DNA of 64,000 nucleotides from an uncultured Pseudomonadota bacterium. Its GTDB lineage: Bacteria; Pseudomonadota; Gammaproteobacteria; Steroidobacterales; Steroidobacteraceae. The translations under genes were made by a program, and so were the position numbers. Positions 9,012 to 38,503 of this stretch are shown here, in pieces (position 1 is the first letter of the stretch; the number at the start of each line of letters is the position of its first letter). The notes below the pieces were generated by a model. It had not been told where the DNA came from and searched no databases. It was given only the letters and a program-made list of their open reading frames with translations. The stretch is from positions 604 through 64,603 of the forward strand of contig CAISDJ010000027.1 of assembly GCA_903884105.1 (NCBI GenBank), read 5' to 3'.

Positions 9012-11009
9012 TTAGCCTGCCTTCAGGAGCGTTCCGAGCTCGGTATGCCCTAGGGCATCGGCAATGTCAGTTGCCGAGTTGCCATCGCTGTTGCGTAGCT
9101 GACGGTTGGCGCCTGCTGCGAGCAGCAACTTCACGATCGGAGTGTGACCGTTTCGTGTAGCGACAATCAGCGCCGTGTTGCCGAAGGCGCCGGTAGCGTT
9201 TGCAGTGGCACCTGCTGCCAACAGACGCTGTACCGTCGAGGCGTGGCCGTTTGCTGCAGCCAGCAGTAGCGGCGACACGCCGCCGCGTACGGCGGAGTTG
9301 GCGTTGACTCCATTGGTGAGCAACAAGGCGACGATTTCCGCCTGACCCTCGCTGGCCGCTGTTGCGAGCGGTGACACACCCTGCTTGTCCTCCTGGTTCC
9401 GGTTCTCCGGTCGGATCAACTGGCGGGCGGCCTCAATGAATCCGGTCTGCGCTGCGTACCACAATGCGGATCTGCCTTCGGCGTCAACCCGCGAAGGATC
9501 GCCGCGATGCTGCAGCAGGATGTCGACGAGGCTGAGCTGCCTCGAACGCGTCGCAATCATCAGGGCATCGCGACCCAGCTTGTCGCTAGCCCCGATATCG
9601 AACCCCGCATCGACCAGTGCCGTCAGAATCTCCGCTTGTTGCGCGCGAGCAGCCGCCAGTACCGGTGGCTCGACGCCATTCGCAGGCGCAGTCCTCGAGA
9701 CGGCTGGCAACAGCAATTGCACCATCTTGAGGTCGCCGTGGCGAATGGCCCAATCGAACCACTGCGGATCGATGGCTGCCGCACCAGCGCCGAGGCTGCG
9801 TACCAAAGGCAGCAACTTCTCTGCCGCGCTCACATTGCGTGACGTGACGGCGTTGCCGAGCGCCGTCCGCAGTTCCGTTGGCGTCCACGGCTCCGTTCGT
9901 CGTGTCGCAATCAGCGAGTTGAGCATGACGGTCGACGGGCGTGTGGCGGCCACGCCAAGGTCCGACCAGCCGGCGTACAGGTCTACTTTTGCTGCGCGAC
10001 GCAGCGGTACGGAGGGCGTTGAAGCTTCTTTCTTGGCGACAGTGGCCGTAATTCCGGCAGCGCGCAACGCCTGGATTGCCGGTATCGATTCGCCGCGCAG
10101 CGCCCAGTCCAGCGCAGTCCAGCCTTCGGTGTTCCGCGCGTTGAACTTCCGTGTGGCTGCCATTCCGCTGAGCAGTGACCTGATGTTGTCCACCCGCTCA
10201 CTCCGTGCTGCATACATGAGCGGAGTGTTGCCAACTGTATCTTGCGCATCGACGTTGGCGCCCGCCTTGACCAGGGCGGAGACAGACGACCCGCTTTCAG
10301 AAGCAGACGCGAGCATCAGGGCCGTGGTGCCAAACCGGTCCGCTCGCTTCGTGTCCGCTCGCTGGCGAAGCAATTCCTGGACCGCATTCCCCGCGCCGGC
10401 TTCAGCAGCGCGCATCAGCGCATCCCTGCCAAACTCGTTAGTGGCATTGGTCAACTCGGGACTGGCGAGGATTCCGAGCAGTGCGGCGTCATCACCATCC
10501 GCTGCCGACCAGAACGCGGCGAGTCTTGCTGAGGGCTCTTTCAGATCCGAAGCTGGCAGGAATTCAAGCGGTAAGCTGCCCCGCTTCAGCGAACGTGACG
10601 CGAGTTCATGGCCGGCCTGAGCGGCAGCCTCCAGCCAGCGCCGCGACGCCTGAACGTCGCGGGGTGCTTCTCGAAGGAAAGACAGGGCAAGGCTGTAGGA
10701 CGCGTTTGCGTGTTTTTGCTCGGCGGCAGCCAGCAGCAATGAACGTTCCCTGGTCACGTCGGCGGTCACGCCCAGACCTGCGCGATAGAGCGAAGCCAGC
10801 AAATATTGAGCATTGGCGTTGCCCTGCGCCGCAAGCGGCTCAAGTGAGCGCACGGCAATCTGGAAGTTCTTCAGTCGGATGGCCGCCAGCGCGGGCTCCA
10901 TGGCAGGCTGCGCTGTGTAGGGGCGCGCTGCAGTCTCCGCCGCGAAAGTAGGAGCGCAGCCCAACAGCCATACCAGCGTGCATGTACGGAGGCCGTTACG
11001 CAGTACCAT
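9012..11009 (-). CDS. Secreted Sel1-repeat plus ankyrin-repeat protein
   Basis: Signal-like N-terminus MVLRNGLRTCTLVWLLGCAPTFA. Sel1 motifs (GNANAQYLLASLYRAGLGV, ...SYSLALSF). Two blocks of ANK repeats (G.TALM.A...G....V..LL..GA..N). The ORF overlaps the 3' end of the upstream oxidoreductase gene. The start could be 11072 or 11009. Confidence 0.8.
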   Translation of the reverse strand: MVLRNGLRTCTLVWLLGCAPTFAAETAARPYTAQPAMEPALAAIRLKNFQIAVRSLEPLAAQGNANAQYLLASLYRAGLGVTADVTRERSLLLAAAEQKHANASYSLALSFLREAPRDVQASRRWLEAAAQAGHELASRSLKRGSLPLEFLPASDLKEPSARLAAFWSAADGDDAALLGILASPELTNATNEFGRDALMRAAEAGAGNAVQELLRQRADTKRADRFGTTALMLASASESGSSVSALVKAGANVDAQDTVGNTPLMYAARSERVDNIRSLLSGMAATRKFNARNTEGWTALDWALRGESIPAIQALRAAGITATVAKKEASTPSVPLRRAAKVDLYAGWSDLGVAATRPSTVMLNSLIATRRTEPWTPTELRTALGNAVTSRNVSAAEKLLPLVRSLGAGAAAIDPQWFDWAIRHGDLKMVQLLLPAVSRTAPANGVEPPVLAAARAQQAEILTALVDAGFDIGASDKLGRDALMIATRSRQLSLVDILLQHRGDPSRVDAEGRSALWYAAQTGFIEAARQLIRPENRNQEDKQGVSPLATAASEGQAEIVALLLTNGVNANSAVRGGVSPLLLAAANGHASTVQRLLAAGATANATGAFGNTALIVATRNGHTPIVKLLLAAGANRQLRNSDGNSATDIADALGHTELGTLLKAG

Positions 11010-12354
11010 ATTTGGTCTCCACCTCGACGCCAGCCTGGCGCAGGAAGTCATTGGGAAGGACGCCTCCTGCATTGACGATCACCGACTGATTCTCCACCTC
11101 GAACTTGTTGCCCTTATGGTCCAGCAGCACGCGGTCCGTCGCGATCTGCCTGACCGTTGAGCCAAGCCGCAAGTCGAGTTCGCCCGACTTTGCGGCAGCC
11201 GCAACGCGATCGCGGTTCCTGGGCTTGGCTCGATCAAAGGCATCGCCGCGATAAGATAGCGTAACCTGCGTTCCTCCCAGTTCGGCGATGCTCGCTGCTG
11301 CTTCCAGCGCGCTATCTCCGCCGCCAACCACCAGGACGTGCTGGCCCTTGTACTGCTCCGGATCGAGGAGGCGGTATACGACCTTCGGCAGGTCCTCGCC
11401 TGGGACTCCCAGCTTGCGCGGTGTGCCGCGACGGCCAATGGCGAGCAGCACATTCCTGGTGCGGTACTCACCCTTCGGGGTCTTGACAAGGAAGCCCTGT
11501 GCTCCCAGGTTCTGCACGCCTTCGACTCGTTCCTTGTAGTTGATCTGCACCCCCGATTTCTTCTCGATGCTCTGCCAGAACTCAAGCAGTTCCTCTTTCG
11601 TCGTGCGGGTGAAATTCACCTTGCCGACAATCGGCAGCGTGGCGGCCTGCGTCATGACGAGCTTGGCTCTGGGATACTGGAATACACAACCACCCAGCGA
11701 CTCTTGCTCCAGCGTAACAAAACGCAGGCGCTTGGACAGGGCGGAAAGCGACGCAGCGAAGCCCGCAGGGCCCGCGCCGACGATGACGAGATCCAGAAGA
11801 TCCGCGCCTCCGCGGGGGCGGTGCTTCTCGATCATTTCAACAACCTGTTTGCCCTGCTCGAGCGCGTTGCGGATCAGGCCCATGCCGCCAAGCTCGCCGG
11901 CCACAAAAATGCCTGGCACGTTGGTTTCAAAGTGCGGTGTCAACACCGGAATGTCGATGCCGCGCTTCTCGGTGCCGAATACGAGTGTGATGGCGCCCAC
12001 TGGGCAGGCGGTACGGCATGCGCCGTGGCCGATGCAGTCTGTTGGACTCACCAGCTCTGCCTTGCCATTGATGAGGCCAAGCACGTGGTGGTGAGGTTGC
12101 TCCGGACAGGCCGTCACGCACGAGCCGCAGCCGATGCAGAGCGAAGGATCGATGATCGGATGCAGAGACGGTGGCTCAATCAAGCCGGCGCTCAAGGATT
12201 CGAATTTCGCTTCTGCGCTCTTGCGCGCCGTGTGGGCGCGCTGCCGACCGAACCACAGCCACAGAAGCAGCATTGGCACGATGTAGATTGCGTATTCGAG
12301 CACACTCACTCCGAAAGTCTTGCTGAGGTCGTCGGTATCCATGCCTGCTGGCAC
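10996..12354 (-). CDS. Membrane-anchored 2x[4Fe-4S] ferredoxin-domain / FAD-NAD(P) pyridine nucleotide-disulfide-family oxidoreductase
   Basis: N-terminal TM helix YAIYIVPMLLLWLWFG. CIGCGSCVTACPE and CIGHGACRTACPVGAI cluster motifs. Dinucleotide folds VIVGAGPAGFAASL and VLVVGGGDSALEAA. Confidence 0.8.
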   Translation of the reverse strand: MPAGMDTDDLSKTFGVSVLEYAIYIVPMLLLWLWFGRQRAHTARKSAEAKFESLSAGLIEPPSLHPIIDPSLCIGCGSCVTACPEQPHHHVLGLINGKAELVSPTDCIGHGACRTACPVGAITLVFGTEKRGIDIPVLTPHFETNVPGIFVAGELGGMGLIRNALEQGKQVVEMIEKHRPRGGADLLDLVIVGAGPAGFAASLSALSKRLRFVTLEQESLGGCVFQYPRAKLVMTQAATLPIVGKVNFTRTTKEELLEFWQSIEKKSGVQINYKERVEGVQNLGAQGFLVKTPKGEYRTRNVLLAIGRRGTPRKLGVPGEDLPKVVYRLLDPEQYKGQHVLVVGGGDSALEAAASIAELGGTQVTLSYRGDAFDRAKPRNRDRVAAAAKSGELDLRLGSTVRQIATDRVLLDHKGNKFEVENQSVIVNAGGVLPNDFLRQAGVEVETKYGTA

Positions 12355-12832
12355 TACCGTATCGGTCGCTGGAATCCCGCCGAGCGATCTTGACTGCTGG
12401 TCATGTCGAACGTCGATACAGGACCCCGCGCCGACAGACTACAGGCAAAGCAAGGCTGCGGTCGCGAAGTCAGTAACAGTTTCAACACCGTCCGTAGCTA
12501 CCCAACGAAACGAGTTCGGCACGACGGAGCCACGCTGCCGTCCGCGTTGACCGAGAACGTCGGTGCGGCCCGAGTATCGGCGGAACAGTCTTAACTGATC
12601 CTTAAGATCCAGAGCGGCAGCGATGCGCAATGGCCAAATATGTTGGTGGTTGGCGACAGATGACCATTTTGTGAAGTGGTCGACACCTGTAACTGTCGTC
12701 GGGCCCAGACAAGTCACTAAATTTCCAGTGCGGAGCCGCCATGCTTCCCACTAAACTTCTACATAACAAGAACGATTGTCCCGATGCCTCGAAAGCAGGC
12801 CGGGAAACGGCGGATTTAGGGAGTTTCACTGC

Positions 12833-14086
12833 ATGTCATTGATGGCGACATTTTGGGTCATGGCCGGATTCGCGGCGGGCATTGCTGCCTGCTTCGTCCT
12901 GCTGCCGATTCTTCGTGGCCCTGCGGACGAGCCAGCCAAGAATGGCCGGCGGGTGTTGGTTGGCGCAGCGGCCGCGGTGGGACTGTTTGGCCTCGCCATC
13001 GCAATTTATCTGCAGTTAGGTCGGCCTGATTCACTGGACGCGAGCCTGGGAAGCGCTCCTCACGCCGGTGTTTCCTCTGGAGAGAGCGGGCAAGTGGGCT
13101 CGATGGAAGCGTCCATCCAGAAGCTTGCTGACAAGTTGGCAGCGGGCGGCGGCACCGATGCGGAATGGGATCTCTTGGCACAGTCCTATGAGTTCCTGGG
13201 GAACGCGGAGGCTGCAAGCGAGGCGAGGCAGCACAGGGTTCCAGGCGCAGTGCAGCCTGCGGCACAGCTGGTGAATGACCTCACTACCTATGAAGATAAA
13301 GTCGGGGTTGCGCCGAAGGACGTTGGGTCCTGGCTCGGGATGGCTGGGCTCAAGCGCACGCAACGTGACTTCGCGGGCGCCGTCGCAGCCTACGAAAAGG
13401 TGCGTGAACTCAAGGGTATGACGGCGGATTCATGGGCGGACTATGCAGATGCGCTGGCTTCCCAACCCGGCGGTTCGCTGCGAGGCAAGTCTGCAGAGGC
13501 GATAGAGCAGGCACTCAAGATGGATCGGAATCATCCCAAGGCCTTGTGGCTGAAGGCGACGCTCGCGATTCAGGAGAAGCGCTTCAGTGAGGCGACCCGC
13601 CTGTGGCGGCAACTGCGTGGCGTGTTGCCCGCCGACTCTCCTGACGTACGCATTATCGAGGCCAACATTGCGGAGGCCGAGGCCCTGGCGAAGGGTGGCA
13701 GTCCTGCGCAGGCTGCGGTGGCACCAGCGCCTGCTGTAGCCGTGCAGATTGAAGGTACAGTAGATCTGGATCCTGCCTTGCGATCCAAGGTCACTCAGGG
13801 TATGACGCTCTATATCTATGCGAAGGTGCCCAATGCGCCGGGTCCGCCGCTGGCTGTTTCACGGGTCGCCGCGGGTTCCTGGCCTGCGCGCTTCGTACTC
13901 GATGACACCCAGTCGATGTTGCCGGACCGTCGGCTGTCCGACTTCCCGCAGGTCATCATTGAAGCGCGGCTTTCAAAGAGCGGCCAGGCAATCGCAGCCG
14001 CAGGCGACCTGCAGGGGCGCAGCGGCACGGTCGACACACGGGCTGCCAGGCCCGTCAACCTGAAGATCGACCAGGTCATCGGCTAG
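12833..14086 (+). CDS. ccmI: CcmI/CycH-like c-type cytochrome biogenesis (apocytochrome chaperone) protein
   Basis: N-terminal TM helix MATFWVMAGFAAGIAACFVLLPILRG, TPR-like middle region and a CcmI-type C-terminal domain (LYIYAKVPNAPGPPLAVSRV...FVLDD). ATG at 12833; the TTG-12776 extension is unsupported. Confidence 0.72.
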   Translation: MSLMATFWVMAGFAAGIAACFVLLPILRGPADEPAKNGRRVLVGAAAAVGLFGLAIAIYLQLGRPDSLDASLGSAPHAGVSSGESGQVGSMEASIQKLADKLAAGGGTDAEWDLLAQSYEFLGNAEAASEARQHRVPGAVQPAAQLVNDLTTYEDKVGVAPKDVGSWLGMAGLKRTQRDFAGAVAAYEKVRELKGMTADSWADYADALASQPGGSLRGKSAEAIEQALKMDRNHPKALWLKATLAIQEKRFSEATRLWRQLRGVLPADSPDVRIIEANIAEAEALAKGGSPAQAAVAPAPAVAVQIEGTVDLDPALRSKVTQGMTLYIYAKVPNAPGPPLAVSRVAAGSWPARFVLDDTQSMLPDRRLSDFPQVIIEARLSKSGQAIAAAGDLQGRSGTVDTRAARPVNLKIDQVIG

Positions 14087-14093
14087 GCTCATC

Positions 14094-15050
14094 ATGCAAG
14101 TTTCACGGTACGATCTCGCCTCGCGCGGCGAAGCACTGACTCCTGATCCGGTTGGATCCTCCCCGGATGAACGGGTGGTGGCCAATCGACGCGGTGTCCA
14201 TGTCCGCTCTCGCTGGCAGCGGTGGATCACGTTCGACAGCGTGTTCCTGACAATCGCTGCCTTGGTCGTCCTTGTCGGCTGGCGGTTTCCCACGGAGCGA
14301 TTCATTTCGCCCGCCGCCGGGCTCGGCTATGCACTCGGGATCACGGGCGGCAGCCTGATGCTGATCCTGCTGCTCTATCCACTGCGCAAGCGGATCGCGT
14401 GGTTTTCGAAGTTGGGGTCAGTCAAGGCCTGGTTCCAGGTGCATATCGTTTTCGGCGTAGTAGGTCCGATCTGCGTGCTTTATCACTCCAACTTTTCGCT
14501 CGGTGCGACCAATAGCAACGTTGCGTTGGCGTTGATGCTCGTCATTCTCGGAAGCGGCCTGCTTGGGCGGTATTTCTACGCCAAGATTCACGATGGTCTG
14601 ACGGGCCACGAAACCAACTATGCGGACCTCAAGGCGAATGCAGAAAGGCTGCGGACCGTCACGCTGTCCGTCAAGTTCATGCCGGAGCTGCTGACTCGTC
14701 TCGCCAATGAGGAGAAGCACCTCGTGGAGAACGCGCAGCGGTGCCCGGCGCTATTGCGGCCTCTCTATCTGGCTTGGTGCAGCCTTCGGGGCAGGTTGCG
14801 GCTCAACAGGCACGTCCGCCTTGCGCTCACGGCAGCGGCGTCCCAGTCGCAACTGATCGATGCGCATCGGGATCGTCTGCAGGAAACGGCGTACGCATAC
14901 ATCGACAGGCGGATGTCCGCTACTCAAAGCGTCGCCGAATACCAGACCTATGCGAACTTGTTTTCGTGGTGGCATCTGCTCCACCTGCCGTTGTTCTTCC
15001 TGATGCTGGTTGCCGGCATCGTGCATGTGGTCGCCGTACACGCGTACTGA
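14094..15050 (+). CDS. Integral membrane protein, about 5 TM helices, His-rich (unknown family)
   Basis: Starts 7 nt after the ccmI-like gene. The TM helices contain histidines (WFQVHIVFGVVGPICVLYH; WWHLLHLPLFFLMLVAGIVHVVAVH). Confidence 0.6.
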   Translation: MQVSRYDLASRGEALTPDPVGSSPDERVVANRRGVHVRSRWQRWITFDSVFLTIAALVVLVGWRFPTERFISPAAGLGYALGITGGSLMLILLLYPLRKRIAWFSKLGSVKAWFQVHIVFGVVGPICVLYHSNFSLGATNSNVALALMLVILGSGLLGRYFYAKIHDGLTGHETNYADLKANAERLRTVTLSVKFMPELLTRLANEEKHLVENAQRCPALLRPLYLAWCSLRGRLRLNRHVRLALTAAASQSQLIDAHRDRLQETAYAYIDRRMSATQSVAEYQTYANLFSWWHLLHLPLFFLMLVAGIVHVVAVHAY

Positions 15051-15123
15051 CGCGGGGTGGTTCGATCATGAATGCAAGGACAGACGGTACAGCGCGGGCA
15101 ATGATTGCGGAGCAGTGGCGCTC

Positions 15124-16689
15124 GTGAGGGCAAGCTGGATCTACAGACTGGTGGGGGCCTTGGGAATGCTCGTTGGGGCAGTACAGGTTCATGCGGCTAG
15201 CCAGGCTCTCGAGCGTCTCTTGATGCCGGGACCGGTGTCTGCTGCCCATGCAAAGTATGAGACTGACTGCGCGCAGTGCCACGATTTCGCAAACCGGCCG
15301 GGCCAGGCCCAGTTATGCGCAACCTGTCATGAGCCGGTTCGAGACGACATTCGAGCGGGAAAGGGGTTGCATGGCCGCCTACCGAACGCCGCCATGCTGC
15401 AATGTCGCGGATGCCATACCGAGCACAAGGGGCGCGACACCGATATCGTCAAGTTTGTGGCGCTTGAGTTTGATCACTCGAAGACGGACTTCGAGCTGGC
15501 GGACGCGCATGCCACCGTGCCCTGCGCAAGCTGCCACCAAGCCGGAAAGCCCTATCGAGAGGCTGCGGGTCAGTGCAGCGGATGCCACCTGAAGGACGAG
15601 CCACATGAGGGTCGATTGGGTAAGGACTGCGCGAGCTGTCATGATTCTGTGGCATGGAGCCGGACTCGCTACGACCACGGCAAGACGAAGTTCCCACTGG
15701 AGAACAAGCACGCAGAAGTCCCTTGCGCTGCCTGCCACTTTGGCAATCGCTACGACGGGACTCCTCAGGCCTGCGCCTCATGCCACTCGCCGGATGATGT
15801 GCATCGCGGAGCCCGCGGTACCGACTGCGCGTCGTGCCATACCACCAAGGAATGGCAGACGGCGCGCTTCAACCACGAGAAGGAGACGGGCTTCGCCTTG
15901 CGGGGTGCACACGCAGACGCCGCCTGCGCGAGTTGCCACAAGACCGGTCGTTATGAAGACAAAGTGCCAAAGGACTGTCACGGATGCCATCTCGCCGAAG
16001 ACACCCATGCCGGCCGCCTTGGGGAGAAGTGCGGTGATTGCCACACGAATGATGCGTTCAAGCCAGCGAAGTTCGACCACGACAAGGATACCAAGTACCT
16101 CCTTGAGGGAGAGCACAAACAGGTTTCCTGCCACGCATGCCATACCGCTCCGGTCGCGCAGCAGTCGTTGCAGTCCAACTGCTCGTCCTGCCATGCGGCG
16201 AACGACGTTCATGCCGCAAAGCTCGGGACACAATGCGAGTCCTGTCATGCGCCGGCCGGGTGGCGCTTTGATGTCCGCTTCGACCATGACCTCAGTGATT
16301 TCCAGCTTCTCGGGCAGCACGCTGCGGTCCCCTGCGAGCAGTGCCATCTGACACAGTCATTCAAGGATACGGCGTCCGGGTGCAACGACTGTCACGCGAA
16401 GACTGACGTCCACAAAGGCAGTCTTGGCAAGGAATGCGCCAGCTGCCATTCCCCGAACGGATGGGGGATCTGGGAGTTTGATCATGGCAAGCAGACCGGG
16501 TTTGGCCTGACCGGCGCGCACGGGAAGCTCACGTGCGCAGGTTGCCATCGCCAGCCGCCAGATGTCGTCAAGCTGTCACAGGACTGTGTGGCGTGCCACC
16601 AGGACGATGACGCTCACTTCGGTGATTTCGGACGGCAGTGCGAGCGCTGCCACGTCACCCTGTCATTCAAGCAAGTGCGTATCCGTTAG
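15124..16689 (+). CDS. Multihaem c-type cytochrome, 21 CXXCH motifs (seven c7-like trihaem modules)
   Basis: I counted 21 CXXCH motifs by eye. The GTG at 15124 gives a Sec-type signal, VRASWIYRLVGALGMLVGAVQVHAAS. The upstream part of ORF 15010 overlaps the preceding gene. Confidence 0.9.
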   Translation: MRASWIYRLVGALGMLVGAVQVHAASQALERLLMPGPVSAAHAKYETDCAQCHDFANRPGQAQLCATCHEPVRDDIRAGKGLHGRLPNAAMLQCRGCHTEHKGRDTDIVKFVALEFDHSKTDFELADAHATVPCASCHQAGKPYREAAGQCSGCHLKDEPHEGRLGKDCASCHDSVAWSRTRYDHGKTKFPLENKHAEVPCAACHFGNRYDGTPQACASCHSPDDVHRGARGTDCASCHTTKEWQTARFNHEKETGFALRGAHADAACASCHKTGRYEDKVPKDCHGCHLAEDTHAGRLGEKCGDCHTNDAFKPAKFDHDKDTKYLLEGEHKQVSCHACHTAPVAQQSLQSNCSSCHAANDVHAAKLGTQCESCHAPAGWRFDVRFDHDLSDFQLLGQHAAVPCEQCHLTQSFKDTASGCNDCHAKTDVHKGSLGKECASCHSPNGWGIWEFDHGKQTGFGLTGAHGKLTCAGCHRQPPDVVKLSQDCVACHQDDDAHFGDFGRQCERCHVTLSFKQVRIR

Positions 16690-16697
16690 AGGCAGTC

Positions 16698-19586
16698 ATG
16701 AAAGTCCTAACACGCTTGCTTTCTTTCCTGACGGCGCCGGGCTATCCGATGTTCGCTGTACTGTGCCTGATGCTGGGCAGCGTTTTCTTTTCTGGAGTGG
16801 AAGCACAGGTTGCGGCGCCCGGTCGAGTCGCTGCCTCGTTCGATCATCTCAGCACCGGTTTCGAGCTGACGGGTGCCCACCTTCAGGTGCGATGCGAGTC
16901 CTGCCACGTCGACGGCGTTTTCAAGGGGACCCAGGCGAACTGCGCCGCGTGCCATACGCCGGGCACGAGAGTGGGCGCGACGAGCAAGCCGTCGAATCAC
17001 ATCCTGACGACGGAACGTTGCGCGGATTGCCATACGACTGTTGCCTGGAATACCGCCGAGCGTTTCGATCACTCCCAGGTCATTGGGTCTTGCAGCAACT
17101 GCCACAATAACGTTCAAGTGGTTGGCAAGCCGGCGAACCACATTCCCACGAATCTGGACTGCAATTCGTGCCACAACGTCGGTTCGTGGGCGGTTGTGCG
17201 GTTCGATCACACCGGCGTAGTCGGCAATTGCGCCAGTTGCCACAACGGAACCCGCGCTACCGGCAAGGAAGCGAACCATATTCCGGTCGGCGATGATTGC
17301 GAGACTTGTCATACGCCAAGTGGCTGGCGCCCGGCAACGTTCAGCCACGTTGGCGTCACTGGCAATTGTGCAAGCTGTCATGACGGCGTACGCAGCACCG
17401 GCAAGGATCGCGCGCATATCCAGTCCAGCATGGTCTGCGAATCGTGCCATGTTCCGACTGCCTGGGCCCCCGTCACTCGTGTCGACCACACGCAGGTTCT
17501 CGGCAGCTGCGTTGTCTGTCACAACGGGACCAGCGTCACTTCAAGTGGCGTCAGGATCACCGGGAAGCCCGGTGATCACATTCGCTCAACCGATACCTGC
17601 GATGCTTGCCACGGCACGATGGTCTGGAGACCGGCAACGCGGGTGGACCATGCCAACGTCACTGGCAGTTGTGCGTCGTGCCATAACGGTACCGCTGCGA
17701 CCGGCAAGACGTTGGGTGTCCATATCGCATCTACGGACGCGTGTGAGACCTGTCATGGAACCACCGTCTGGCAACCCACTTCGCGCGTCGATCACAACCA
17801 GCTCGTTTCCGCGAACTGCGCCACCTGTCATGCACGCCCGATTGGTATCGGTGCCGTGCAGGCAACGGTCAAATCCGCTACCCACGTCGCCAGCGACAAC
17901 CAGTGCGCAACCTGTCATTCAACGCTGAGCTGGCGTCCTGCGAGTTTCGCTCACACTGGTATCACGAGCGGCTGCGCCAGCTGCCACAACAATGTGACCG
18001 CGACCGGCAAGTCAGGCGGCCACATCAATTCGACGGCGATCTGCGAGTCATGTCACGTGTCCACCTCCGTGTGGGCGCCGGTTGCGCCTGCACAGGTCAA
18101 TCACACGCAGGTCATTGGGTCTTGCAATACCTGCCATAACGGTTCAGTGAGAACTTCTTCAGGGACCCCGATCCAGGGCAAAGGGACGGGCCATATCCTG
18201 TCGACCGCCTCCTGTGATGCCTGCCACGCCATCGGATCATGGACGCCGACAGTGCGGGTCGACCACGGGCAGGTGCTCGGAAGCTGCTTTACGTGTCACA
18301 ACGGTTCGACACGGACTTCCGCAGGCGCATTGATTACCGGCAAGTCGCTCACCCACATTCAGAGTTCCAATGCCTGCGAGAACTGCCATTCGCCCAGTTC
18401 CTGGGCGACCAACGGCCGTCCGGACCACAGTACTTTCATCGGCAACTGCGCCACCTGCCACGGTGTATCGGCTTCGGGGAAGGGTCTCAATCACATCCAG
18501 TCAACCGTTGCCTGCGATAACTGCCATACGGTCTCTTCGTGGCTGCCGGCAGAGGCGGTCGATCACACGCAAGTGCTTGGAACCTGCACGAGCTGCCACA
18601 GCGGCTCGGTTCACACGAACTCGGGTGCGTTGATCCAGGGCAAGGGGACGAGCCACATAACAACCGCCCTGGAGTGCGACTCGTGCCACACGACCTCCAC
18701 TTGGGTTGTCGCGAGATTCGATCACACGAAGACCGCGCTGTCCTGCTTCTCGTGCCACGACAATACGCATGTGGCAGGCAAGACCGCCTCGCACATCACG
18801 ACCACGAACGCCTGCGAGACCTGCCACGTGAGCACGGCGTGGAAACCCGCCACCCGTGTTGACCATACCCAGGTGACGGGAACCTGCTTCTCATGCCACA
18901 ACGGATCGACTGCACGCGGCAAGTCGCAAACGCATATCGCGTCCGACAACACCTGCAGTACCTGCCACACGACGGTGGCATGGACCCCGGCCCAGTTCGA
19001 TCATCGCAATGTGGTTGCGGGGACTTGCGGTACCTGTCACAACGGCGTGAGTGCGACTGGCAAGCCGAACAATCACCTGCCGACAACGCAGTCCTGCGAC
19101 GCATGCCATGTCACGCTGGCATGGAAGCCGGCCACCTTCAGTCATGCCGGCATTACGACAGGCTGCAGCTCGTGCCACAACAACACGGTGACGGCAGGCA
19201 AGTCGACCAGACACATGACCACGTCCCGCGAATGCGTTATCTGCCACTCGACCACTGCGTGGACTCCTTTGACGTTCAGGCACACATCGACGGAGTACCC
19301 GGGTGACCACCGCGTTGCGTTGACCTGTACCGCCTCCGGGTGTCATTCGACCAACACGGATGCTGCCGTATGGCGAACCCCGTCATTGCGGGGCTCCTGT
19401 GCCGGGTGCCACTCAGGCAACTTCAAGGCGGGCAGTCACCCGAAAGTCAGCGGCGTGTCCAACTACACGGCGAGCGAGCTTCGAAATTGTTCGGGCGCTT
19501 GCCACACGTACACGAATGCGACGTTGACGACGATTTCCAAGACCCGGAATGGCCCACAGCACCGGGTAACGAGCAACGGCTTCTGA
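16698..19586 (+). CDS. Giant multihaem c-type cytochrome, 34 CXXCH plus two variant motifs (about 963 aa)
   Basis: ATG at 16698 lies 8 nt after the upstream stop and has a GAGG SD. Hydrophobic signal ...MFAVLCLMLGSVFFSGVEAQ. I counted 34 canonical CXXCH motifs plus CTASGCH and CSGACH. Confidence 0.9.
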   Translation: MKVLTRLLSFLTAPGYPMFAVLCLMLGSVFFSGVEAQVAAPGRVAASFDHLSTGFELTGAHLQVRCESCHVDGVFKGTQANCAACHTPGTRVGATSKPSNHILTTERCADCHTTVAWNTAERFDHSQVIGSCSNCHNNVQVVGKPANHIPTNLDCNSCHNVGSWAVVRFDHTGVVGNCASCHNGTRATGKEANHIPVGDDCETCHTPSGWRPATFSHVGVTGNCASCHDGVRSTGKDRAHIQSSMVCESCHVPTAWAPVTRVDHTQVLGSCVVCHNGTSVTSSGVRITGKPGDHIRSTDTCDACHGTMVWRPATRVDHANVTGSCASCHNGTAATGKTLGVHIASTDACETCHGTTVWQPTSRVDHNQLVSANCATCHARPIGIGAVQATVKSATHVASDNQCATCHSTLSWRPASFAHTGITSGCASCHNNVTATGKSGGHINSTAICESCHVSTSVWAPVAPAQVNHTQVIGSCNTCHNGSVRTSSGTPIQGKGTGHILSTASCDACHAIGSWTPTVRVDHGQVLGSCFTCHNGSTRTSAGALITGKSLTHIQSSNACENCHSPSSWATNGRPDHSTFIGNCATCHGVSASGKGLNHIQSTVACDNCHTVSSWLPAEAVDHTQVLGTCTSCHSGSVHTNSGALIQGKGTSHITTALECDSCHTTSTWVVARFDHTKTALSCFSCHDNTHVAGKTASHITTTNACETCHVSTAWKPATRVDHTQVTGTCFSCHNGSTARGKSQTHIASDNTCSTCHTTVAWTPAQFDHRNVVAGTCGTCHNGVSATGKPNNHLPTTQSCDACHVTLAWKPATFSHAGITTGCSSCHNNTVTAGKSTRHMTTSRECVICHSTTAWTPLTFRHTSTEYPGDHRVALTCTASGCHSTNTDAAVWRTPSLRGSCAGCHSGNFKAGSHPKVSGVSNYTASELRNCSGACHTYTNATLTTISKTRNGPQHRVTSNGF

Positions 19587-21970
19587 TGCGCAGAGGAGTA
19601 CTGAAGGCGCTGGTCGGGTGGTTGGGGTTGGGTCTGCTATCCCAGCCCGCGTCAGCCCAGTTTGCTCCGCGGTTGCTCGAAGCAGCAGATATCACGACGG
19701 CTGACACCCACCTGGATGTCGTATTGTTGTTCAGCTGCCAAGTCCGCTATTTGTCACACTTGCCGGCAGCCGAGAGCAATGTCGTCGACGTTCGGCTGGG
19801 TGTGGGCACTGATTGCCTCCAGGGCGGGAGCATCATCGGCAGCGAATCGCTGACGCCCCCCGCCGGGCAAGACGTCCTCAAGTCGATCGAGTTGATCCCC
19901 TTGCTCGCGAGCGACGTGGACCTGCGGATTACCTGGGGCACGCGGGAGCGCTACCTGATCGCTCCGACCTCTGATCAACGTGGGCTGCGGATCCGGGTGC
20001 TGCGGGACGAGCGGGGTGTGGATCGCAGCAGGGTATTGATTACCGAGCCCGAGGGCACGCTGGCTTCCGGCTACGCCATCAACCTCGAGTCGGCGACCGA
20101 ACCCTTCACGCCTGCCGCTGCAGCCGATGTGCAGCGTATCCTTGGCCAGGCAAGCTATGTTTCGAAGGTGGAGATCGAAAGTCAGACTTGGTATCGAATG
20201 CGCATCGGTCCATTCGCCACGCGTGCGGAGGCCGACAGGCAGCTGTTGCGTGCTCAGCAAGCGTATCCGCGAGCCTGGTTGGGGATCGCAGATGAGGTTC
20301 TGCACGAGGACGACGTCGTTACCACGACTACGACGGATGACATTCCCTCAGGTTCCGGACTCGTGCCTCCAACGGGTTTGTTTGCGATCGCACAGGCGCA
20401 GCTCAGGCGGCGCCAGTACGACGCGGCGATTGCTTCTTTCACAAGGTATCTCGTGGACGCGACGGGGGATACGCGAGGGACGGCTCGCGAGATGTTGGGT
20501 CTCGCCCAGGAGCGAAGCGGGCACCTTGCATTGGCCAAGGCCGAATATGAAGCCTACCTGCGTGAATTTCGCTCGGGTCGTGGGGCGGACCGTGTGCGAC
20601 GCCGCCTCAATGCGTTGCGGACGGCATCGGGCGCCAACCGGTCGCAGGAGGGTACCGGCGTTGATGAAGAACTCGCCTGGCGCTATTTCGGCGGCGTGTC
20701 GCAGTACTACAGATACGACGATAATCTCCGTACGATCGGCCCCCTCGAGGCGAAGTTCTCCAGCCAGAACGCGCTGCTGACCGATGCCGACTTCGTTGCC
20801 CGCAAGCGGGGCGAGTCGTTTGATTCGCTGGCGCGCTTCAATGGTGGCTACATCAAGGACATGTTGACCAAGGGTCCTGGGGACAGCTTCCGCCTCAGCA
20901 GCGCCTACTACGAAATGAGCGATGTGGAGCGGGGTTGGATGGCCCGCTTCGGTCGGCAGGCGCGCAGCAGCGACGGCATTCTCGGCACATTCGACGGCGC
21001 ATTGGGCAGCTACCGCCTTCAGCCCCATCTCACGTTCAATCTGGCAGCGGGGTTCCCCATCGAGTCCACCCGCAGCGGATTCAACAGCGACCGCCAGTTC
21101 CAGTCGCTCGCCGCCAATTTCGGTGTTCTGAGCGGTGGCTGGGAGCCATCCCTGTATGTGATCAACCAGACGTATCTCGGGGAGACGGATCGCCAGGCCG
21201 TGGGGGCGGAATTGCGGTACTTCAAGCCCGGACGAACCCTCATCGGTTTCGTCGATTACGACCAGCATTTCGGCGAGATGAACAACGTGATCGTGGTGGG
21301 TACGGTGCAGTTGCCAGCAATGTGGACGATGACGCTGGATGTCGAGCAGCGCAGGACGCCGATGCTCATGACCCGAAATGCGTTGATCGGGCAGGCCGTG
21401 CAGACGCTGGATCAATTGCTGGATCTGTTCACGAGCGAAGAGGTCAGGCAGCTGGCTCTCGACCGCACGGCGCCGTCCAGGTTGGCGAGCTTTTCGCTGT
21501 CGAGGCCCCTTGGCCAGCGTTTTCAGTTCGCACTGTATGCTGCGTCGACGGACATGGGCGCTACGCTGCCATCCGGAGGCGCCGAGGGCATTCCGGACCC
21601 GGGCGGTGACCTCTCACTGTCGGCGCAACTTCTGGCCATGAGCCTGTTCCAATCCGGCGATATCAACATCATGGCGGTTCGTTACCAGACGAATGATTTC
21701 GCCAAGACCGCCTCGATTGGCATCAGTTCACGATTGCCGCTCTATGGGGCCTGGCGGATTGGTCCGCAGCTGCGATTGGACCGCCGCGAGAATATCGCGG
21801 ATCAGTCGGTCCAGATGCTGCTGGCGCCGACGTTGCGACTCGGGCTCCAGCTCAAGAAGGTCATTTTCGAGCTTGAAGCCGGAGCCGAGCTGACGAATCG
21901 CACGGGATTCCCGGACGATGACAAGACGCGCCGCTATTTTTTCAGCCTGGGCTATCGATGGAACTTCTGA
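19586..21970 (+). CDS. Outer-membrane-type beta-barrel protein with N-terminal AMIN-like, SPOR and TPR regions
   Basis: TGATG overlap with the cytochrome gene. Signal MRRGVLKALVGWLGLGLLSQPASAQ. SPOR-like segment GYAINLES...WYRMRIGPFATRAEADRQLLRAQQAYPRAW. The C-terminal half (about 450 aa) has an alternating pattern and ends ...YFFSLGYRWNF, an OMP-type terminal Phe. Confidence 0.68.
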   Translation: MRRGVLKALVGWLGLGLLSQPASAQFAPRLLEAADITTADTHLDVVLLFSCQVRYLSHLPAAESNVVDVRLGVGTDCLQGGSIIGSESLTPPAGQDVLKSIELIPLLASDVDLRITWGTRERYLIAPTSDQRGLRIRVLRDERGVDRSRVLITEPEGTLASGYAINLESATEPFTPAAAADVQRILGQASYVSKVEIESQTWYRMRIGPFATRAEADRQLLRAQQAYPRAWLGIADEVLHEDDVVTTTTTDDIPSGSGLVPPTGLFAIAQAQLRRRQYDAAIASFTRYLVDATGDTRGTAREMLGLAQERSGHLALAKAEYEAYLREFRSGRGADRVRRRLNALRTASGANRSQEGTGVDEELAWRYFGGVSQYYRYDDNLRTIGPLEAKFSSQNALLTDADFVARKRGESFDSLARFNGGYIKDMLTKGPGDSFRLSSAYYEMSDVERGWMARFGRQARSSDGILGTFDGALGSYRLQPHLTFNLAAGFPIESTRSGFNSDRQFQSLAANFGVLSGGWEPSLYVINQTYLGETDRQAVGAELRYFKPGRTLIGFVDYDQHFGEMNNVIVVGTVQLPAMWTMTLDVEQRRTPMLMTRNALIGQAVQTLDQLLDLFTSEEVRQLALDRTAPSRLASFSLSRPLGQRFQFALYAASTDMGATLPSGGAEGIPDPGGDLSLSAQLLAMSLFQSGDINIMAVRYQTNDFAKTASIGISSRLPLYGAWRIGPQLRLDRRENIADQSVQMLLAPTLRLGLQLKKVIFELEAGAELTNRTGFPDDDKTRRYFFSLGYRWNF

Positions 21971-22611
21971 GACTCCCTGCCCGTAGCGGTCCGGGTTCGA
22001 GGCTGGCGCTGTGGGCCCTCCTGCTTGTTGCGACCTGCTTGCCGCAGTCCGGCTGCGTCGCTGTGCGCGCCGGTGCGCGTCAATACCAGGACGAAAGCAC
22101 CGCGGTCACGATCACTGTCGCGACGGATCCCGTGGTGCTGGCCAGGGAAGTGTCGATGCTCGCGGTCAATGCGCGTGACTATGTCAGCTTGTTCCCGCTG
22201 GAGGTGAATCGCTCCGGTCAGCGTCGCTACTACTTCTATGGCTACAGCTGGTCCACCATTGATCGACGCCAGACCCCAGGAGCGACAGTCCCGAGTGACG
22301 ATGAGTTGACCCTGCAGGCGGACGACAGAACGGTTGTGCTGCGGATGTCTTCGCGGGAGCTGCAGAATGCCGGGTTGCGTACTTTGCCCGTAGCGCCTCC
22401 TGCCTCTGGTGCGCGGCCGCTGTTGTTTCCCACGGATCGCGCCACGCTGCTGTTCGTGGGGACGGCCCGCGCCTTGTCCGCGCAGTTCGCGGCGACGTCC
22501 GGCGCTGCTTCCGTGGAACAGTTTCGGCAGTGGAGCGCTCCCGAACCCGGATTCAAGGGATTCTTCGAGCGGATAGGATCTGCGCAGCCGACCCGAACGC
22601 CATCAAGGTAG
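21958..22611 (+). CDS. Hypothetical lipoprotein
   Basis: 13-nt overlap with the barrel gene. Signal plus lipobox ...LWALLLVATCLPQSGC. No family was recognised. Confidence 0.55.
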   Translation: MELLRLPARSGPGSRLALWALLLVATCLPQSGCVAVRAGARQYQDESTAVTITVATDPVVLAREVSMLAVNARDYVSLFPLEVNRSGQRRYYFYGYSWSTIDRRQTPGATVPSDDELTLQADDRTVVLRMSSRELQNAGLRTLPVAPPASGARPLLFPTDRATLLFVGTARALSAQFAATSGAASVEQFRQWSAPEPGFKGFFERIGSAQPTRTPSR

Positions 22612-23346
22612 ACGAGACATCGCCTCTGCAGGCTTGATGCCGGCTGTCTGCTGTGCGAGCCGCCGGGTCAGTGCTCGCAATACATCGGCGATCCATTCCC
22701 GTTCCGCTTTGGTCACCCGCCGCGTCGACTTCCATGTCGTGATCTTCTCTGCGCCGCTGCGTCGCCCCCAGGGACTCGTAATCTCCGCAAGCTTGTGCAG
22801 CACGTCCAGGTTCGCGTTCAGCGCGTCTGCAGCCGTCTTTCGATCAACGAAACGACGCTCCAACAGGCCGATCGCTGCCCGTCCGGCCGGGATCAGCCGA
22901 CGCGGCTCACGCAGCAGACGCGCGTATTCCTCGGCCAGAAACAGGACGTCACCGTCCGCAATCATGTCGTGTGGCGCGGCGGGGTAGCTGGTATGGATGA
23001 GCTGCGCCGCTGAAGCAGTGCAGTCTGCATCGGCCATATGGGCGCACGGTTCGGCTGGCTCGCGGCCTGCGACGACAGTATGGATATGCGTCAGTTGAAA
23101 TGCGCCTGGTCCAAGGGAGAGCAGCGCGTGCACGTTCCAGCCGGCGATCAGTGGATCGAGCAGCGCGTGGGCAGCGGCTTCAGTGGCAAGGTCTCTTGTT
23201 GGAGTCAACGTCGCGATGCGGGCCTTAATCCAATACGAAAAGGAGCCGAGCGTCCCGACGGAGGTCACCTTGGGGTCGAAGTCTTCACCGTCGGCGCTCT
23301 CAACCCGGTAGCAGAGGCGAACAACTCGGGTGTTCAGTTCGTTCAT
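22603..23346 (-). CDS. Hypothetical protein (no recognisable domain)
   Basis: A 247-aa ORF with ordinary, non-shadow amino-acid composition. It is convergent with the cytochrome operon. Confidence 0.45.
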   Translation of the reverse strand: MNELNTRVVRLCYRVESADGEDFDPKVTSVGTLGSFSYWIKARIATLTPTRDLATEAAAHALLDPLIAGWNVHALLSLGPGAFQLTHIHTVVAGREPAEPCAHMADADCTASAAQLIHTSYPAAPHDMIADGDVLFLAEEYARLLREPRRLIPAGRAAIGLLERRFVDRKTAADALNANLDVLHKLAEITSPWGRRSGAEKITTWKSTRRVTKAEREWIADVLRALTRRLAQQTAGIKPAEAMSRLP

Positions 23347-27149: not shown

Positions 27150-28469
27150 TCAGGGAACGACCAGTCCCCTGCAGTCACCGAAGCCGATGGAGACGAAACC
27201 CTCTCTGGCAGCGCGCGCCCGGAGGATGACCTCATCGCCGTCCTCGAGAAAAGTCCGTTTCTCGGTGGTGGGCAGCGTCAGCGGCTTGCGCCCTCCTTCG
27301 GTGATTTCAAGCAGGCTGCCGAGACTGTCGCGTGTCGGCCCGGAAATCGTACCCGTGCCGAGCAAATCCCCTGGCTGCAGGTTGCAGCCATTGCTCGCAT
27401 GGTGCGCGACCAGTTGCGCTGTCGTCCAGTAGAGGTGTCGCACGTTGCTTGCGGAGATCCGTTGCGGCTCGATGCCTTGCCGGCGCATCGCCTCGCTGGA
27501 CAACAAGACTTCAAGCGCCACATCGTAGGCACCCCTGGCCTGGTCGGACTCGTTCCACAGGTAAGCGAGCGGATGCGGGTCTCCTGCAGCACGGGGTGTC
27601 TGAGCGATCCGGAAGGGCGCGAGCGCTTCAGGCGTGATGACCCACGGCGAGACGGTAGACATGAAATTCTTGGCGAGGAAAGGTCCGAGCGGCTGGTACT
27701 CCCAGGGCTGGATGTCCCGCGCCGACCAGTCATTGAGCAGGCAGAATCCGGCAATGTGATCCTGCGCTTCGTCAATCGAGATCGGGGTGCCGAGCGGATT
27801 GCCCCGGCCGATCCAGATACCCATCTCGAGTTCAATGTCGAGTCGCTTGCTCGGTCCGAATGTCGGACTTTCCTCGTCAGCCGCTTTGCTCTGGCCCGCG
27901 GGACGCTTCAGCTGCGTACCTGACGGGCGAATCGACGATGCGCGACCGTGATACCCGATCGGCACATGCTTGTAGTTCGGGAGCAGCGGATTATCCGGAC
28001 GGAACAGGCGGCCGACATTCACCGCGTGATGAATGCCGGCATAGAAATCCGTGTAGTCGCCGATGGAGGCGGGCAGCAGCAGGTTGCAGTCCGGTGAGCT
28101 GTGGAGCAGGCGCCCCCCCATTTCGCGTGCGCGGCCAACCTGTTCGCCATCCACTTGAAGCAGTGCCGAGACCTGCTCTCGAAGCGCGCGACGAGGAGCC
28201 GCTCCGAGCGCGAACAGGGGATTCAGCGTAGGACCGATTGCCGCCCGCGCAGCGTCCGCAGCCAAACCGTAGAGCAGGCCGCCAGAAAGGGCTACGCCAA
28301 GATCGAGAATGCGATCGCCGATGGCGATGCCGCCTCGCGGCGCCCCACCGACGCTGGGCGCGAAGACGCCAAGTGGCAGGTTCTGGATCGGAAAGTCTGG
28401 ATGGCCGTTCGCAGACTCCACCCAGCTCCGTAGCGCCGTTTCATGGGTCTTGTCCGTTGCGCCGCTCAT
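27150..28469 (-). CDS. fahA: Fumarylacetoacetase
   Basis: N-terminal [12 protein letters not shown] motif. Length 439 aa. Overlaps the stop of upstream hmgA (operon). Confidence 0.9.
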
Positions 28470-29776: not shown

Positions 29777-29957
29777 CGTGTCTTGCCCCCGTGCGGCTTC
29801 ACTGTCGCGCTGCTGCAGGCATGGCGCGGAAAATCGTGCGGCTCTGGCGGGCATTCTAGCGGCAATCGGCGGGCGCGCGCACCCGCATCGTGCGATCGAT
29901 TGCAGAGGGAACGTCTTTCGTGATAGTTGTACGCGCAACCAGATTGAGGAGTCGTTC

Positions 29958-35793: not shown

Positions 35794-35801
35794 GGGGTGT
35801 C

Positions 35802-38425: not shown

Positions 38426-38503
38426 TGGGTTATCGGTCTGATCCTGAAGCTTCCCGGGACCGGGCGCCAAGTCGGCAACCTCCCGATGAAGGCCATATTA
38501 GTG

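Follow-up and report, generated by a model that had tools for sequence, protein, structure and literature searches.

We analysed a 64,000-nt stretch of DNA (hereafter the window) from an uncultured member of the Steroidobacteraceae (NCBI assembly GCA_903884105.1, contig CAISDJ010000027.1), in which the genes at positions 9012 to 22611 encode large multihaem cytochromes, an outer-membrane barrel protein and their companions. Judged by its sequence, this locus is a well-conserved copy of the described PCC3 porin-cytochrome cluster and not a new type of system. Since 2017, PCC3 has figured among the candidate iron oxidases. We propose, with a probability of about 0.5, that the locus is a PCC3-class trans-envelope conduit that is fed by an input module resembling NADPH oxidases (NOX), made up of an iron-sulfur (FeS) flavoprotein and a PCC3-type inner-membrane protein (IMP), and that it exports electrons from the cell. 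New here are the Steroidobacteraceae as a host group, the extended gene set, the invariance of the 21-haem cytochrome, and a cultured, plasmid-borne example in another phylum. The features of the locus, with the letters by which its genes are called below, are as follows.

9012 to 11072, minus strand: gene A, a secreted Sel1/ankyrin-repeat protein, 686 aa counted from the first ATG.
10996 to 12354, minus strand: gene B, a membrane-anchored FeS-flavoprotein with Fer4 and Pyr_redox_3 matches.
12355 to 12832, no strand: the divergent intergenic region between B and the C–H operon, 478 bp, with presumed promoters.
12833 to 14086, plus strand: gene C, a CcmI/CycH-like apocytochrome chaperone with Ig_CycH and TPR_CcmH_CycH matches.
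14094 to 15050, plus strand: gene D, a PCC3-type IMP of 318 aa, recognised by its motifs and five transmembrane (TM) helices.
15124 to 16689, plus strand: gene E, a 21-haem cytochrome c of 521 aa with a Sec signal and 21 CXXCH motifs.
16698 to 19586, plus strand: gene F, a 34-haem cytochrome c of 962 aa with a Sec signal and 34 CXXCH motifs.
19586 to 21970, plus strand: gene G, a signal-bearing outer-membrane protein with a C-terminal barrel, recognised by SPOR and TPR matches and an AlphaFold2 model.
21958 to 22611, plus strand: gene H, a small lipoprotein or secreted protein of 217 aa without a Pfam family.

The original prediction, which was made from the sequence of this stretch without database searches, had described six tightly packed, co-directional genes at 12833–22611, and the open reading frame (ORF) list and its translations match both the genes and all of the junctions (C–D +7 nt, D–E +73, E–F +8, F–G −1, G–H −13). 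The stop codon of F shares 1 nt with the start of G, and H is translationally coupled to G. A recount of the CXXCH motifs returned the same 21 in E and 34 in F. The coordinates also agree that B lies across the 478-bp divergent gap and that its 3′-end is overlapped by A, by 77 nt if A begins at its first ATG. The other parts that had been read from the translations, namely a CcmI-like protein, a five-helix membrane protein with His motifs, a barrel protein, and a protein with two FeS clusters and FAD, were each found by profile, motif or model.

The assignment to PCC3 was made by published motif and architecture criteria, with a cluster from a Burkholderiaceae metagenome-assembled genome (MAG) as proxy, and not by alignment to the Sideroxydans ES-1 or Leptothrix sequences. 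PCC3 comprises a porin, an extracellular multihaem cytochrome (MHC), another MHC in the periplasm and an inner-membrane protein that is hypothetical (He et al., 2017; PMC5566968). The published IMP is ~300 aa long and has five TM helices, with SGXXG on TM4 and WX3HX13H on TM3 and TM5 (PMC5566968); D, with 318 aa, five TM helices, one SGXXG and two WX3HX13H motifs, has the same build. For the periplasmic MHC, the published median is 21 haems, with few aa per haem and with repeats inside the sequence, and the extracellular MHC has a median of 34 haems and is repetitive and rich in Thr, Ser, Ala and Gly (PMC5566968). The haem numbers of E (21) and F (34) equal these medians, at 25–28 aa per haem, and F shares both the composition and the repetitiveness of its published counterpart. 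The seven repeats of ~67 aa in E resemble the seven repeats of 66 aa, with 21 haems in all, of the periplasmic MHC of the Riftia symbiont (PMC5566968). The order D-E-F-G is that of Slit_1446–1449 (IMP, periplasmic MHC, extracellular MHC, porin) of Sideroxydans lithotrophicus ES-1, which has a second copy in Slit_0867–0870 and which is joined as a PCC3 host by Leptothrix cholodnii SP-6 and the Riftia endosymbiont. In the proxy cluster, the IMP shares 32% identity with D (E 3e-40) and the MHC 41% with its counterpart.

The locus differs from the published clusters in two respects. Its host is a Steroidobacteraceae heterotroph and not a known iron oxidiser, and four further conserved genes (FeS-flavoprotein, CcmI-like, lipoprotein and ankyrin/Sel1) lie outside the published definition. 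He et al. make no mention of a flavoprotein, CcmI or lipoprotein for PCC3 (PMC5566968), which bears out the earlier remark that the first two stand outside the known systems. The FeS-flavoprotein and the CcmI-like gene are nevertheless conserved companions of the conduit here, and the lipoprotein is conserved within the Steroidobacteraceae. The trans-envelope porin-cytochrome reading itself is supported by the domain content, the predicted barrel and the conserved synteny. The description of the conduit as atypical does not hold, given that the locus matches published PCC3 feature by feature. The earlier mention of PCC3 in the Gallionellaceae named the right cluster and was too narrow in its range, as PCC3 occurs in Alpha-, Beta- and Gammaproteobacteria (PMC5566968).

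Searching a species-representative genome collection with a profile of G gave 276 relatives, of which the best 80 were kept. All 80 come from Steroidobacteraceae or from unclassified Gamma-/Proteobacteria MAGs, and the closest is a Steroidobacteraceae MAG at 93% identity. The arrangement A(−) B(−) / C D E F G H was found by tblastn in almost every kept locus with enough flank, and the position of C is conserved across the Steroidobacteraceae loci. A check of gene order conservation showed that it recurs in dozens of species-level genomes and is not a product of chance.

The two WX3HX13H motifs of D are W113-H117-H131 and W293-H297-H311, and its SGXXG motif is S154-G-L-L-G158. In two alignments, these motif residues do not vary, and five histidines (H117, H131, H294, H297 and H311) are among the invariant positions; the motifs are kept in 52/52 extracted homologues as well as in nine of the ten contexts checked for them outside the Steroidobacteraceae. 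Based on these motifs, D is predicted to bind two b-type haems, one through H117/H297 on the cytoplasmic side and one through H131/H311 on the periplasmic side. The AlphaFold2 model of D (predicted local distance difference test, pLDDT, 74.9) has five TM helices, of which TM4 and TM5 run into a ~120-aa cytoplasmic helical bundle; in this model, B might dock on the bundle. No Pfam family matches D significantly. The Ferric_reduct family matched neither D nor 30 of its homologues even at E ≤ 1, weak DUF4405 matches occur in 15 of the 30 family members, and a fold search of the model against PDB gave nothing below E 0.6. The best 120 matches of an IMP profile search are all Steroidobacteraceae-like. 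Distant IMP relatives on plasmids adjoin 2Fe-2S proteins, and one of them is annotated as ‘iron reductase’.

The presumed partner of D, the flavoprotein B, has a TM helix at its N-terminus, two FeS motifs in a ferredoxin-like domain, and a FAD/NAD(P)H domain, and a Pfam search recovered a Fer4 dicluster and Pyr_redox_3 (E 2e-41). Since a run of Arg and Lys trails the TM helix, the redox domains should face the cytoplasm according to the positive-inside rule. The flavoprotein domain is of the thioredoxin-reductase/FNR/YpdA type, with YpdA/Bdr, TrxR and TrxR-type ferredoxin-NADP reductases as its relatives in PDB. A role as a bacillithiol or thioredoxin disulfide reductase (YpdA/TrxR type), with which B shares its fold family, was rejected for want of a redox Cys pair. 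The domain has no redox-active CXXC, and C223, the only Cys outside the FeS motifs, is conserved below the 95% threshold; an FNR-like enzyme is therefore more likely than a disulfide reductase.

The first FeS motif of B reads CxxCxxCxxxCP. The second (residues 107–118) reads CxxHxxCxxxCP, and its His is found in 41/41 homologues, including those of Bacteroidota and Alphaproteobacteria. The first motif deviates in the Bacteroidota species Emticicia oligotrophica, which has Ser for the second Cys, and in locus L088. Together, the motif deviations and the invariant His suggest from sequence a His-ligated or 3Fe cluster. His-ligated clusters are typically found at protein surfaces, where they serve as entry or exit points.

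Both B and D are present in 45 loci and both are absent from four, with D alone in one (L010) and B alone in none (Fisher’s exact p = 2e-5, not corrected for phylogeny). The four loci without the pair (L027, L030, L031 and L042) still have CcmI, the cytochrome with 21 haems, the barrel and the lipoprotein. The second cytochrome is giant in these loci, with 50–70 CXXCH motifs, and reaches about 2100–2190 aa, and next to the CcmI gene lies either an ankyrin gene or an empty stretch.

B is also the best-conserved protein of the cluster across lineages, with 46% identity in Emticicia, 56% in a Sphingomonadales MAG and 57% in L088. Plasmid pEMTOL02 of Emticicia oligotrophica DSM 17448 (Bacteroidota) carries a PCC3-like operon (L081; NC_018749.1, 78197–90781) that encodes, in order, CcsA (1028 aa), an IMP that bears the PCC3 motifs, B (46%, E 9e-124), a 23-haem and a 40-haem cytochrome, a 538-aa outer-membrane protein and a GW-domain lipoprotein. 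B is placed inside the operon there, between the IMP and the cytochromes. The 538-aa outer-membrane protein shows no homology to the G profile (E 0.6). No paper in the literature collection searched ties Emticicia to multihaem cytochromes. Among plasmids, B otherwise has one weak match in Pseudoalteromonas.

In the Sphingomonadales MAG, B and a CcmI-like gene are divergent from IMP-E-F-G, which is followed by CcmF/G/H; B, D, E, F and G of this cluster match by sequence and the CcmI-like gene by Pfam. A Caulobacterales MAG has CcmF-G-H-I and a gene of Fer4/Pyr_redox_3 architecture divergent from IMP-MHC. A cytochrome-maturation gene goes with the cluster irrespective of the maturation system of the host, of the CcmI type in Proteobacteria and CcsA in Emticicia. 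Short-form IMPs of 184–224 aa, with two WX3HX13H motifs and SGXXG, and without the cytoplasmic bundle, are found in L084 (Anaerolineales), L089 and L090, and align with the IMP profile at an hhalign probability of 99.2%. Next to them lie a small ferredoxin gene, a Pyr_redox_2 gene separate from it and the gene of a c7-repeat cytochrome (730–906 aa), with no barrel gene beside them. Judging by their gene content, these three loci seem to have the same input module in a form that lacks the porin. In L082 and L085, three conserved divergent genes (395 aa, 821–842 aa with Laminin_G_3, and 504 aa) lie on the minus strand upstream of the IMP in place of B and CcmI; apart from Laminin_G_3, no family matches were found in them. 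A 2026 survey of cave MAGs mentioned in passing a ferredoxin-NADP reductase gene near 7/11 clusters with a large MHC and a ~20-strand porin (PMC13264449).

In the mechanism that we propose, cytoplasmic NAD(P)H would reduce the FAD of membrane-anchored B, from which electrons would pass to its two FeS clusters; the His-bearing cluster resembles surface-exposed ‘exit’ clusters. B would hand the electrons to the cytoplasmic-side haem b of D, and from there they would move to its periplasmic-side haem b. D would pass them to E, a 21-haem wire across the periplasm, and E to the 34-haem F, which would be sheathed by the ~22-strand barrel of G and lead to the outside. G would be tied to the peptidoglycan through its SPOR domain, C would be a CcmI-like chaperone devoted to the 55 haem sites and their maturation, and H and A would be accessory proteins of the envelope. 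The acceptor would be extracellular, for example minerals of Fe(III) or Mn(IV), humics or O2, with no uptake from Fe(II). Gene content, motifs, the barrel fold, synteny, the co-occurrence of B and D and the constancy of the 21 haems are observed here, and from them we infer cofactor binding, the contact between B and D, the acceptor, where F is located and in which direction electrons flow.

Three considerations point outward. Inward flow from Fe(II) to NAD(P)+ would have to work against the redox gradient as well as against a membrane potential that is negative inside. The window also carries genes of a heterotroph, including those for a thiolase, the homogentisate pathway, an aromatic-ring hydroxylase and efflux pumps. 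At 27150–31628 lie genes for a fumarylacetoacetase, a homogentisate 1,2-dioxygenase and a FAD aromatic-ring hydroxylase, then a MarR regulator and an MFS transporter, and such a cluster for the breakdown of aromatics fits a heterotroph. Finally, both PCC3 clusters of Sideroxydans ES-1 are down-regulated on Fe(II), and the authors of that study regarded them as not involved under their conditions (PMC8788666).

The published model of PCC3 has electrons running the other way, from extracellular Fe(II), Mn(II) or minerals through D into the quinone pool, and would leave B as an unrelated or merely regulatory neighbour. Its basis is that PCC3 was discovered in the genomes of iron oxidisers and is common in Sideroxydans and Leptothrix, that He et al. 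proposed the IMP to be a quinone-active cytochrome b (PMC5566968), and that iron-oxidising cells of Sideroxydans CL21 showed a rise in the IMP gene of one PCC3 copy; the clusters without an adjacent flavoprotein also fit it. Nonetheless, we consider uptake unlikely here. In ES-1, the response of both clusters to Fe(II) runs counter to it (PMC8788666) and the extracellular cytochrome went undetected in proteomes of cells on magnetite. The co-occurrence and co-loss of B and D, together with the position of B within the Emticicia operon, argue that B is no chance neighbour. Nothing in D points to a quinone site, and the 64-kb window holds heterotroph genes and no autotrophy genes.

Extending the proposal of NAD(P)H-fed export beyond this locus, we tentatively suggest, at odds a little short of even, that PCC3-type conduits, at least in heterotrophs, are NOX-like trans-envelope reductases fed by NAD(P)H and not iron oxidases, that B, as an FNR-ferredoxin fusion docked on the bundle of D, bypasses the quinone pool and drives reducing equivalents of the cytoplasm across some 55 haems to the outside, and that the module of flavoprotein, ferredoxin, IMP and c7-repeat cytochrome is ancient and common to Proteobacteria, Bacteroidota and Chloroflexota.

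The benefit of export may lie in redox balancing, in reductive mobilisation of iron or manganese, or in superoxide production. A narrower version holds that export serves reductive iron acquisition or extracellular superoxide production and neither respiration nor redox balancing, which would make the locus a Gram-negative counterpart of eukaryotic FRE/FRO/NOX. The pairing of B and D mirrors the split design of NOX/FRE, one distant IMP relative carries the ‘iron reductase’ annotation mentioned above, and the route would conserve no energy. Genes for DUF1513, a di-haem oxidoreductase (DHOR family) and imelysin (Peptidase_M75) are adjacent to one another at 34630–38470 on the minus strand, a combination that we take to be usually associated with iron acquisition. 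We nevertheless judge this role very unlikely, as 55 haems are costly for assimilatory needs and the divergent promoter region has no convincing Fur box. A scan of that region (12355–12832; GC 0.56 against ~0.62 in the flanks) found no sigma-70 consensus or terminator either, and its best Fur-box match, at 12/19, is equalled by 8% of equal-sized chunks of the window.

The two cytochromes behave differently across the loci. E is built from seven tandem c7-type trihaem repeats of ~67 aa, with a CXXCH spacing that recurs every three haems, and has 24.8 aa per haem and 24 further His beyond its 21 CXXCH motifs. It matches Cytochrome_C7 (E 1.7e-30) and TIGR04257, and has no match among PDB sequences at E ≤ 1e-5. 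Exactly 21 CXXCH motifs are present in ~55 of the 68 Steroidobacteraceae homologues of E, and nearly all of the others are contig-end fragments or matches to the neighbouring cytochrome. F has one CX3CH and one CX4CH besides its 34 CXXCH motifs, a composition of T 13.8%, S 10.6%, A 9.5% and G 8.7%, and a period of 23–24 aa. It contains Cytochrome_C7/c3 domains and a match to MtrC domain II/IV (E 2e-29), and has no relative among PDB sequences. Its orthologues range from 17 to 70 haems and reach about 2100–2190 aa. The constancy of E and the variability of F fit a protein that spans a fixed gap and one that has a free outer end, and we propose that E is a periplasm-spanning wire and that F threads the barrel of G and extends outside the cell. 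GSU1996, a c7-repeat cytochrome with 12 haems, is ~12 nm long; scaling from it suggests ~21 nm for the 21 haems of E, whose fixed length could make it a molecular ruler for the periplasm.

The predicted domains of G bear on whether F could be housed in this way. SPOR (E 4.6e-8), a peptidoglycan-binding family, and TPR are the sole Pfam matches of G. Its AlphaFold2 model (mean pLDDT 77.7, about 85–95 across the barrel) shows a SPOR domain at 163–234, TPR at 265–347 and a barrel at 365–793 with about 22 strands, as counted from the DSSP string, and a C-terminal Phe. The outer-membrane-type beta-barrel that had been read from the sequence is accordingly seen in the model. An N-terminal beta-sandwich (31–139) is a domain beyond those of the earlier reading. 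In the model, a helical insert at 595–626 could act as a plug. A Foldseek search with G returned only generic large barrels, with the 24-strand FimD/PapC ushers ranking first; G has no relative among PDB sequences, and a search with its barrel against plasmids gave no match.

If the system were confined to the periplasm, E and F would be an electron store or a wire to a partner in the periplasm or the outer leaflet, and G, anchored to the peptidoglycan in the outer membrane, would have some other role, for instance in export or anchoring, and would not be a sheath. Several features lend themselves to this explanation. F has a Sec signal only and no lipobox, the nearest folds of G are ushers and ordinary porins and not MtrB, and the insert could plug the barrel. 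In addition, the outer-membrane protein of Emticicia is not detectably homologous to G, which makes the barrel the least conserved part of the cluster. The gene arrangement speaks for a sheath, since F and G share 1 nt and the barrel gene comes immediately after one of the F type, both in Steroidobacteraceae loci and in several outside clusters. Orthologues of F with 70 haems and about 2100–2190 aa would, if extended, far exceed the width of the periplasm. F also resembles the DmsE/MtrA family in a sub-threshold match, and members of that family insert into barrels. Confinement to the periplasm therefore appears highly improbable to us.

Turning to the companion proteins of the proposed export conduit, C has two hydrophobic N-terminal segments (TM helices), a TPR region and a C-terminal Ig-like domain. 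It matches Ig_CycH (E 1e-30; 106 bits against a cut-off of 27), TPR_CcmH_CycH (E 1.6e-11; 44.8 bits against a cut-off of 42) and an NrfG-like model (E 2e-10). By its sequence, C belongs with the CcmI/CycH apocytochrome c chaperones, having the membrane anchor, the TPR region and the Ig-like CycH domain of that group.

H has no Pfam family and lies downstream of G in 66 of the 73 loci with enough flank. Its description as a lipoprotein needs a minor correction, as the lipobox, LPQSG-C, is non-canonical; its Cys is aligned in 43/70 homologues (with start codons chosen automatically). A homologue with 30% identity and an SGC lipobox follows the barrel in L082. A 247-aa ORF at 22603–23346 (−) runs opposite to H and shares 9 nt with its 3′-end. 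This ORF has no Pfam or NCBIfam family and, by tblastn, recurs only in the two closest loci that reach that far (L002 at 77% and L003 at 64%).

A matches Ank_2 (E 7e-59) and has one Sel1 repeat. It lies upstream of B in most Steroidobacteraceae loci, at 32–59% identity, and was not seen in the clusters examined outside that family. A later Met at 11009 gives A an LLGC lipobox and would shorten the overlap with B to 14 nt; A may be a lipoprotein, as this motif indicates, if it starts there. Possibly it is a periplasmic scaffold.

A number of observations weigh against the proposed NAD(P)H-fed export. PCC3 is still described as functionally uncharacterised in the literature of 2025–2026. Because D has neither a Pfam family nor a fold match in PDB, it is the motifs that carry the prediction of haem b binding. 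B is divergently transcribed here and lies outside the operon. Because L010 has D without an adjacent B and four of the 11 outside contexts (L082, L083, L085 and L087) have no flavoprotein beside the cluster, B may be optional or encoded elsewhere. The four loci that lack both B and D may stem from one evolutionary event. The surface exposure of F is presumed, given that its sequence offers a Sec signal but lacks a lipobox and that no secretion system was found near the locus. The barrel of G, at ~22 strands, is narrower than that of MtrB, which has 26. Lastly, NAD(P)H-fed export would consume rather than build membrane potential.

The near-universal occurrence of PCC3 in a common family of soil and freshwater heterotrophs means that its ecological importance is not limited to iron oxidisers. 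The best-conserved partner, an FeS-flavoprotein of the NAD(P)H type, offers a concrete and falsifiable mechanism and direction of flow. Emticicia oligotrophica DSM 17448, which is cultured and has a homologous cluster on a 100-kb plasmid, is a tractable organism in which the function of PCC3 could be studied.

Compared with other porin-cytochrome systems, the locus follows the logic of MtrCAB, MtoAB and PioAB, in which a multihaem cytochrome in the periplasm is combined with a barrel as sheath and a second cytochrome on the outer side. It differs from them in having 21 and 34 haems in place of 10, an F without a lipobox, and SPOR and TPR extensions on the barrel of G, which does not match MtrB_PioB. 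Its inner-membrane partner D is a b-type protein with di-His motifs, whereas that of MtrCAB is the tetrahaem CymA. Membership in the MtrAB/MtoAB/PioAB family was rejected on the missing MtrB_PioB match and on the score of the DmsE model TIGR03508 with F (141.9 bits over five stretches, against a cut-off of 192.2). OmcA/MtrC was rejected as well, with model scores of 36 on F against a cut-off of 209, and so was the Geobacter Pcc system (OmbB-OmaB-OmcB/Ext), which combines octa- to dodecahaem cytochromes with an OmbB-type porin and for which the comparison covered the cytochrome models; its GSU2203-family decahaem model, the only related NCBIfam match, reached 74.9 bits against a cut-off of 325. 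The view in the original prediction that the individual parts fall outside the MtrCAB, PioAB/MtoAB and Geobacter Pcc families is borne out by these scores. E is closer in build to the nanowire cytochromes of the GSU1996 type in Geobacter, which likewise consist of tandem c7-type trihaem domains, with four domains to the seven of E; E, in addition, sits in a porin-cytochrome operon.

The input module is best compared with NOX/FRE/FRO systems, in which an NAD(P)H flavoprotein on the cytoplasmic side is paired with a membrane protein that has two His pairs on two helices, predicted in D to hold stacked b haems, and electrons emerge on the outer side. Fre-MsrQ of E. coli is a bacterial precedent for such a two-component NOX-like design. 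The likeness of D to the ferric reductase domain superfamily is one of motifs and logic and not of family membership, given that D has five TM helices instead of six and no Ferric_reduct match. B is of the TrxR/FNR type and differs in bringing two FeS clusters of its own and a membrane anchor. The acceptor of the module formed by B and D would also differ, being a 55-haem wire in place of the O2, Fe(III) or MsrP of the known systems.

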